Below are positions 58,517 to 59,998 of a DNA stretch of 64,000 bases, piece after piece. The position numbers and the translations under genes were made by a program. The stretch's first letter is position 1. Each line of letters begins with the position of its first letter. The stretch is from positions 30,752,001 to 30,816,000 of the forward strand of contig OZ024751.1 in NCBI GenBank assembly GCA_964016885.1. Direction: 5' to 3'. Under the pieces are notes generated by a model, which saw only the letters and a program-made list of their open reading frames with translations, ran no database searches and was not told the DNA's origin. The DNA is from Eledone cirrhosa. Taxonomy: Eukaryota.

Positions 58517-59097
58517 ACCTAACTGTACCAAGGATTTCACACATTTTCCAATATATATATATGTGTGTGTGTGTGTGTGTAATATATGTATATATATATA
58601 TATATAATATATATATATATATATATATAATATATATATAATATATGTATATATATATATATAATATATATATATATATATATATATAATATATGTATAT
58701 ATATATATATAAATATATATAATATATGTATATATATATAATATATATATATATATATAATATATGTATATATATATATATATATTATATATATATATAT
58801 ATATAATATATGTATATATATATATATATATATTATATATATATATATATATATATATATAATATATGTATATATATATATATATAATATATATATATAT
58901 ATATATATATACATATATATATATATATATATATATATATATATATATAATATATATATATATATATATATATATATATATATATATATATATACATATA
59001 TATATATATATATATATATATATATATATATATATATATATATATAGAATAAGGAAAAGCGAAGTAGTTTCAGATGTTCAAGTCCTTTAATAATAAT

Positions 59098-59171
59098 GCT
59101 GTGATATATATTTCAGTGACGACACTGGCCACACTGTTCTGTGTGCGAGTGTCGTGTCATCATCAGACAGC
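59098..59171 (-). ncRNA. Type-I hammerhead ribozyme motif (left arm)
   Basis: gctgt CTGATGA tgacacgacact..cacac-loop-gtgtg..agtgtcgtcact GAAA tatata TC acagc, with a perfect 5-bp stem I. Confidence 0.75.
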
Positions 59172-59718
59172 TTGTTACATAATAAGGTTATGTTTCCGAG
59201 GCAATCCAAATTGGATCGACAAGGGAACGGATGAATTGCGTGTTCTTGGGTTTTTCATCCGCTCCCTTGTGAGTACCAATTCACCCCCACCGGCCTGCGC
59301 AAGCGCATGTCCGAAGGAAGTTGACCATTCTCCACCGCAGACTTTAACGAATAAGGTGATGGCCAGTCGTACCGTCAACGCTTAGTGAGGGGTAGTATTA
59401 TGACCTGTAAAAACTAACACTCTCCCATCCCCTCCGGCTCTCGGCTGACTGCCACAGCCGTGATGGGTAGCAGTAAAATATGGTACAGGCATTGGTGGGC
59501 CATTGTTTTGGATGACAGGGTGAATTGACTAAACAAATTTCGTTGAAGTCTGCGGTGGAGAATGGTCAACTTCCTTCGGACATGCGCTTGCGCAGGCCGG
59601 TGGGGGTGAATTGGTACTCACAAGGGAGCGGATGAAAAACCCAAGAACACGCAATTCATCCGTTCCCTTGTCGATCCAATTTGGATTGCCTCGGAAACAT
59701 AACCTTATTATGTAACAA

Positions 59719-59792
59719 GCTATCTGATGATGACACGACACTCGCACACAGAACAGTGTGGCCAGTGTCGTCACTGAAATATATATCACAGC
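59719..59792 (+). ncRNA. Type-I hammerhead ribozyme motif (right arm)
   Basis: As the left arm, with one stem I mismatch (gctat/acagc). Confidence 0.7.
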
Positions 59793-59803
59793 ATTATTAT
59801 TAA

Positions 59804-59998
59804 AGGCGGTGGATTGGCAGTATCGGTAGAGGGTCGGACGCCATGCTTTCCAGCATAGTTACGTCCCTTTACGATCTGAGTTCAAGTCCCGCCGAGGTTG
59901 ACTTTGCCTTTCATCCTTACGGGGTCGATAAAATAAAGTACCAGTAATGCACTGGGTATTTGCTGGCCTTGTGCCTAAAGTAGAAACAATTATTATTA
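59804..59998 (+). mobile_element. Full-length SINE family 1
   Basis: ggcggtggattggcag head through the (ATT)n tail. Confidence 0.92.

Follow-up and report, generated by a model that had tools for sequence, protein, structure and literature searches.

The inverted repeat at 59 kb of the window, as we call the whole 64,000-nucleotide stretch of Eledone cirrhosa DNA analysed here, belongs to a high-copy repeat that is probably the 3' end (pLTR) of a Penelope-like element (PLE), and it probably consists of two truncated copies that were joined as separately primed cDNAs met. The family is tentatively assigned to the PLEs because of its layout and its hammerhead motif, as an RT/EN gene was not found: Pfam on 62 ORFs and segments, among them 57 of 82 selected segments (228 in all), gave no PLE domain, and together with a homolog and an atlas search it gave no RT or GIY-YIG gene of PLE type for the family. 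The layout of the locus is that of ordinary PLE debris and is mostly explained by published PLE biology, with two small details that are new.

Self-alignment of the window confirmed the inverted 268-bp arms that the sequence-only reading had placed at 59046..59806; they lie at 59084-59351 and 59539-59806 and are identical at 266/268 positions, with no gaps. The repeat unit exceeds these arms, which corrects that reading, as it includes 59350-59538 and as the left copy has 37 extra bases. The shorter, inverted 5'-truncated copy (59047..59351, minus strand, 305 nt) is the left arm plus a 37-nt tail (59047..59083, minus strand), and the longer 5'-truncated copy (59350..59806, plus strand, 457 nt) has no tail; the two lie head to head with their 3' ends outward and overlap by 2 nt (59350-59351). 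Within the 59-kb locus only the left copy is tailed, with a tail of 37 nt or up to 41, and both copies at 49 kb have the tail too. The 3' end of the left copy is set against a (TA)n-rich microsatellite (58560..59046, unstranded) that abuts the tailed end and is the likely insertion target. On the other side, the 3' end of the right copy is uncertain (about 59802 to 59806), blurred by a SINE-like repeat of ~190 bp (59805..59990, plus strand) that is unrelated to the arms and adjoins the end of the copy; beyond this SINE, no tail-like sequence was found on the right side. As a whole, the window consists of animal DNA with much (TA)n/(CA)n, LINE fragments and many copies of this ~190-bp SINE, which looks octopus-like.

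The apparent spacer between the arms (59350-59538) is the family's own upstream sequence on the plus strand. In plus orientation it aligned to the stretch that precedes the 49-kb copy with a score of 52 (null mean 21; 0/500 shuffles as good) and did not match the minus strand of the same 49-kb region, for which 279/500 shuffles were as good. The joint between spacer and arm (59351 to 59537/59538) was found in one contig each of two public runs (X1 and X4), and the X4 contig (record 12) extends 81 nt further upstream. Since the spacer aligns and runs straight into the arm in contigs, the locus is a plus-strand copy fused to a minus-strand copy.

The family is abundant in public contigs and spans at least 480 nt upstream of its 3' end, all of this 3' sequence being non-coding. 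It matched 1876 contigs of X1, possibly the window's own source, and was also found in X4 (38 contigs), another sample of the same study, and in X5 (9 contigs) and X8 (2 contigs), which come from other organisms; all four runs are contigs. Summed depth in X1, which does not equal copy number, was 267,432 close to the 3' end and had dropped to 784 at 59530, a truncation gradient with 3' bias, and at the far upstream end most single listed contigs had a depth of 7-56; such depths suggest a copy number in the thousands or higher. The family pieces have a single arm in most cases, with loose ends at 59047, and by eye the sequence runs on past the common 3' end in 20 X1, one X4 and two X8 contigs. 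Depth in X1 was 152,000 below the hairpin described below and 54,000-67,000 above it, a drop that may reflect frequent stops of reverse transcription there or merely divergent copies failing to align. A family-specific pattern gave 0 matches in public metagenomes.

We propose that the element's protein would have nicked both strands at the AT-rich site. One cDNA would have started at the distal start, tail included, against the (TA)n, and stopped after 305 nt, and the other would have started about 37 nt further in and run for 457 nt; the 3' ends of the two cDNAs would then have annealed over 2 nt and been filled in. In the tandem RNA of the parent element, cleavage by the hammerhead would be slow, with the motif working either as a dimer via the UAUAUA palindrome or with help of the protein, and the hairpin, which lies on the same strand, would likely belong to the 3' UTR as an RNA element. 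The 59-kb and 49-kb copies themselves are likely dead. The asymmetry of the 59-kb locus bears on this proposal: the left arm alone has the tail and the right arm alone has 189 nt of upstream sequence, so each arm contains sequence missing from the other, an outcome that simple fold-back copying is unable to produce. This asymmetry, which we count as one of the new details, suggests that two cDNAs were primed separately. If they started on opposite strands of the target and were joined over 2 nt, a single step suffices, and for a PLE we lean slightly towards this account. No description of twin priming or template switching for such insertions was found in the newer literature that was covered.

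The strongest competitor retains the same PLE family and lets a single cDNA fold back and prime its own second strand, the right tail being lost later by endonuclease resolution or by deletion at the SINE insertion. This account is possible, if on the doubtful side, and for a PLE as such we give it appreciable weight short of an even chance. It draws on two near-perfect palindromes, 14174-14606 (211/211) and 57898-58142, whose arms have hardly any spacer between them and which look like hairpin products, on the SINE at the right end, which makes later loss of a tail possible, and on the ascription of the tail to endonuclease resolution in part of PMC8557442. However, two steps are needed, the second having to remove about the length of the tail, and no tail sequence lies beyond the SINE; moreover, the fold-back at 1953-2155 also has a one-sided 41-nt tail at (TA)n and no SINE match at its other end. 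The latter belongs to another fold-back family of the window (1912-2155, 45836-46033 and 27988-28101), with the 41-nt one-sided tail at (TA)n, in which no hammerhead was found; none was found either in the fold-backs 44945-45391 (176/183) and 48360-48604 (112/113; nested and lying in (TA)n).

Each arm of the 59-kb locus contains a minimal type I hammerhead motif. In the left copy (59098..59171, minus strand; C3 at 59166, predicted cut after 59103) the core is intact, with a 5-bp stem I, a palindromic stem III and a UC site, and in the right copy (59719..59792, plus strand; C3 at 59724) stem I has one mismatch (A·C). Along the sense strand each arm has GCUGU, CUGAUGA, a 45-nt stem II, GAAA, UAUAUA, UC and ACAGC, and the 45 nt between CUGAUGA and GAAA bear out the earlier claim of a long-stem-II hammerhead in the arms. 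A descriptor requiring the core, a stem I of at least 5 bp and a stable stem II matched the window 8 times, against a mean of 0.015 in shuffled sequence (maximum 1 in 200 shuffles), and descriptor and pattern together gave 10 hammerhead motifs in the 64 kb. Rfam, by contrast, misses these motifs altogether, with no hammerhead match in the window at gathering score or at E<=10; its other matches were three chance miRNA matches and a tRNA-like match at 12833-12903 (minus strand, 48.5 bits), which may form the head of a repeat also present at 16.2-16.5 kb. The stem III palindromes UAUAUA and UAUGUA form self-duplexes of -3.2 and -2.2 kcal/mol, respectively, and in the folding model, which ignores tertiary contacts and proteins, the active monomer fold costs 5.6 kcal/mol in the left copy and 9.8 kcal/mol in the right. 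An RNA through both arms would be one long duplex of about -590 kcal/mol in which the motif is predicted to be buried, and as the two 59-kb motifs sit on opposite strands, they cannot form a dimer in cis.

At 49 kb, a diverged copy on the plus strand (49a; 49140..49608, with homology probably from about 49115 by eye) aligned with the 59-kb unit at 211/290 letters (73%, E 7e-44), and the sequences of the two loci thus proved to be one family. Its core is intact (C3 at 49498, G12 at 49551), but the cut site is CC and stem I is broken. It is followed on the plus strand by 270 nt with no protein match (49609..49879) and by a second copy (49b; 49880..49973, plus strand) that begins in the stem II loop, lacks CUGAUGA and the hairpin, and has the 3' half of stem II, GAAA, a UC site and the tail before (TA/TG)n. 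Copy 49b and the left 59-kb copy end at the identical base, 49b against (TA/TG)n. Aligned identity is 77/84 between 49a and 49b and 77/95 between 49b and the left 59-kb copy. The partial direct repeat that had been noted at 49.5/49.9 kb (49525-49615 and 49880-49980, period 355 bp) is therefore real, and since the first ~30 nt after 49608 resemble by eye the continuation past the 3' end in other family copies, including the 20 X1 contigs, the locus is a real partial tandem with its middle missing by internal deletion. A 115-aa frame at 49586-49930 was considered as a gene and set aside, with no Pfam, homolog or atlas support. The further suggestion of a tandem arrangement for dimeric cleavage did not hold: 49a has a dead CC site and 49b half a core, and a hybrid core of the enzyme half of 49a with the site of 49b, although legal at 9/9 enforced pairs, is predicted to cost 14.6 kcal/mol above the free ensemble, compared to 4-6 for intact monomers. 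Of the four copies, the left 59-kb one alone has core, stems and cut site all complete. No complete tandem hammerhead was found within the window, where a covariance model of the motif gave no new full copy and half copies only, at 8411 and 49842; the inverted half copy at 8.4 kb starts in stem II, like 49b.

Upstream of the core (by 52 nt in the left copy) lies a 17-bp hairpin with an 18-nt loop, at 59219..59270 on the minus strand and, with pair probabilities of 0.78-1.0, at 59620..59671 on the plus strand, its stability reaching a z of -7.8 against 500 shuffles. As had been claimed, the 49-kb copy keeps this hairpin (49394-49445) with changed but still pairing bases: 16/17 pairs are kept and four are changed on both sides (rungs 13, 14, 15 and 17), two further changes are one-sided and both give G·U on the ribozyme strand, and one pair is broken. 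Among 5000 random mutants with 12 arm changes, none was as stable as the 49-kb hairpin and two were as stable as the 59-kb one, and RNAalifold retained 15 pairs, three with double changes. These comparisons rest on the two window copies and on 30-letter loose ends, with 40 of 63 variant rows listed. For 50 X1 contigs, the majority loose end (agreement 0.70) has by eye G·U, C-G, G·U, A-U, A-U and G-C at rungs 13-18, and the G·U at rungs 13 and 15 are wobble intermediates between the 59-kb and 49-kb copies (A-U vs G-C). One X5 contig has five Watson-Crick pairs in this region and two X5 contigs have U·U at rungs 16-17; hairpin pair 4 (59222) is broken in 81% of the depth in X1 and 74% in X4. As a whole, the 59-kb unit folds better than its shuffles (z -3.32) and the 49-kb unit does not (z -1.18), and a second hairpin further upstream was no better than shuffles (z -0.8 and -0.5).

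The paired changes could instead have arisen at the DNA level, by copying from arm to arm through a template switch or hairpin repair rather than by selection on the RNA, which we regard as unlikely. In keeping with such copying, the four double changes are neighbours at rungs 13-17 and could be one or two events, and the opposite strand folds almost equally well (-26.5 vs -26.7 and -31.7 vs -35.0 kcal/mol). However, arm copying would yield perfect Watson-Crick pairs, whereas each of the two one-sided changes gives a G·U when read on the ribozyme strand and the X1 majority loose end has G·U where the 59-kb and 49-kb copies differ. RNA-level selection on the hairpin is the likelier reading. The mutant comparison supports the conservation of structure that the sequence-only reading had in mind, and its suggestion of selection on RNA structure falls short of proof. 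A description of a PLE pLTR hairpin was not found in the literature searched.

Two further origins of the repeat find less room beside two joined PLE cDNAs. The family might be a non-autonomous, retrozyme-like element whose tandem units of ~355 bp are cut into circles by the hammerhead and reverse-transcribed, as the 355-bp period at 49.5/49.9 kb falls within the 150-450 bp range given in part of PMC7229834 and no ORF was found; this is very doubtful, however, as neither the hairpin nor CUGAUGA is present in the second 49-kb unit, the family reaches 480 nt or more upstream of its end, depth forms a truncation gradient and the window contains no complete tandem motif. A misassembly, or a MITE bounded by terminal inverted repeats, would agree with the 99% arm identity and with a fold-back junction bridged by none of the 27 listed contig pieces, beside which a further 1913 lie outside the listing, but is hardly credible for asymmetric arms bounded by element ends, with an internal part that is the element's own upstream sequence, most family pieces one-armed with a 3' gradient, and three other hammerhead families of the window inverted too.

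Altogether four hammerhead families occur in the window, and in three of them (8/10 motifs) stem II has a C·C at rung 4. The variant stem II begins with an N·U base (U·U, G·U or A-U) and continues with two mostly paired rungs, the second of which (rung 3) is A·A in the left and right 59-kb copies alike; then come the C·C, a helix and, after stem II, GAAA-UAURUA. An unpaired base after A9 and a G10.1-C11.1 closing pair are absent here, and since stem II departs in this way from the published consensus, the motif was filed as a variant. The majority sense strand of X1 has U at 59157 (74%) and 59116 (93%), making rungs 2-3 G·U and U-A, as in 49a. Across the three families (6 distinct rows), 8/13 pairs change on both sides, which 1/500 shuffles equalled, while the C·C stays, and 87% of cells are paired compared to 23-54% in slid controls, figures biased in favour of the stem II model by its having been drawn from the same sequences it is scored on. 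Among 40 rows listed for X1 or X4, no substitutions were found at either C or in the core, and G12 is changed in one X5 contig. Outside the core the four families have little similarity, and only one pair of them (F1-F2) beat all 200 shuffles, via the core. A search outside the window with the general C·C pattern gave 20 metagenome and three viral matches, of which 0/23 had both stems, and these were dismissed as chance.

The C·C rung common to three unrelated hammerhead families may be the second new detail, although its novelty is uncertain. No description of a C·C mismatch in a hammerhead stem II was found in a literature search that is sensitive to wording, nor was the rung seen by eye in the portion of the PMC4209133 Fig. 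S3 alignment text available. Lünse et al. (RNA Biol 14:1499) have reportedly surveyed about 150,000 PLE hammerhead variants, and the C·C form may already be among them. More boldly, one could see here a distinct hammerhead subtype (C·C rung, U before GAAA) in several families, with the hairpin as an off-switch until the protein binds and the one-tailed inverted copies as traces left in the genome by a dimeric RT-endonuclease that primes at two ends, a combination that we consider decidedly improbable. A mismatch kept by three families with its neighbouring pairs all changed offers a cheap mutational target for the role of the PLE hammerhead, and tail and truncation asymmetry, if counted over thousands of copies, would test two-ended priming against fold-back.

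The other hammerhead families and repeats of the window were recorded alongside. The perfect fold-back 14174-14606 (211/211) has a hammerhead motif in each arm (C3 at 14274, minus strand, and 14506, plus strand), with the C·C rung and with (TA)n on its right, and a third family with the C·C rung lies at 8246-8505, 13670-13880 and 34580-34775. The fourth family, in the fold-back 57898-58142, is without the C·C pattern and has a fully paired stem II and a 3-bp stem III; its active fold is predicted to cost 1.0 kcal/mol only, making it the foremost candidate for cleavage as a monomer. In two otherwise unrelated families, the letters immediately beyond their shared 3' end include ATATTTACTCC (8506-8516, and the loose ends before 59047); copies stop there against (TA)n, and it may mark a priming site. 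A repeat pair at 5320-5515 and 60627-60812 (73%) has a core-like stretch, with a 4-bp stem I at 5320, and is unconfirmed as a hammerhead. LINE fragments at 5895-7475 and 62016-64000 (both minus strand) contain an ORF for an APE endonuclease (Pfam E 6.5e-13) along with pieces of RT (RVT_1, zf-RVT), a 398-bp inverted duplicate (39155-39552 / 47937-48331) is 96% identical and has a weak C2H2 zinc-finger match, and a tandem array with a 96-bp period (17262-18391) is open as a 444-aa repetitive frame.

Compared with known systems, the motif has the features of minimal type I hammerheads, a core with stems I and II and a palindromic, unstable stem III. As far as the accessible part of PMC4209133 goes, it is like those of metazoan PLEs in the CUGANGA / GAAA / UH core, the 5-bp stem I, the long stem II, the palindromic stem III and the opposite-strand pairs a few hundred bp apart, such pairs being reported there at 100-700 bp; the consensus of these hammerheads has the unpaired base and G10.1-C11.1, whereas here the N·U base is followed by two pairs and the C·C. 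A U·U base of stem II is known from axolotl HHR_Amex2 (PMC7229834, in part). Non-LTR retrozymes, in what was available of PMC7229834 and bioRxiv 10.64898/2026.07.22.740005, resemble the family in their type I hammerhead, the lack of an ORF and the 355-bp partial repeat, but here there is no tandem of complete motifs and there are a truncation gradient and an inverted layout.

In octopus, Penelope families are listed without mention of hammerheads in the covered part of PMC13282606, and our literature search gave no description of hammerhead-bearing PLEs in octopus or of hammerheads in cephalopods. Naiad PLEs with 'HHR_half_core', Octopus families included (PMC8557442 File S1, in the portion covered), have the same (TA)n target and core halves 35-50 nt apart (45 nt here), whereas the 59-kb motif has complete stems; 10-13-mer family motifs had no match in the non-coding ends in that portion of File S1, where line breaks and divergence may hide one. 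The closest likeness is to the pLTR of EN+ PLEs (Penelope/Poseidon, Neptune, Nematis and Hydra), for which we relied on sections of PMC8557442 and PMC11167929. The family differs from them in that no RT/EN gene was recovered and in its at least 480 nt of non-coding 3' sequence and its covarying 17-bp hairpin. The sections of PMC11167929 describe a PLE protein that nicks both strands and extends them, its two start sites bounding the tail, and hammerhead cleavage that depended on protein and without which insertion in vitro still proceeded; those of PMC8557442 describe an inverted 5'-truncated copy, a one-sided tail of 30-40 bp and a bias to microsatellites. The same arrangement was found here: 5'-truncated copies with a fixed 3' end (the left 59-kb copy, 49b and the depth gradient), an inverted 5'-truncated copy adjoining the main one head to head, a tail of 37 nt at one end only against the 30-40 nt of these elements, a partial tandem forming the pLTR at 49 kb (49a, its continuation and 49b), an AT-rich, microsatellite target, and a hammerhead near the 3' end.
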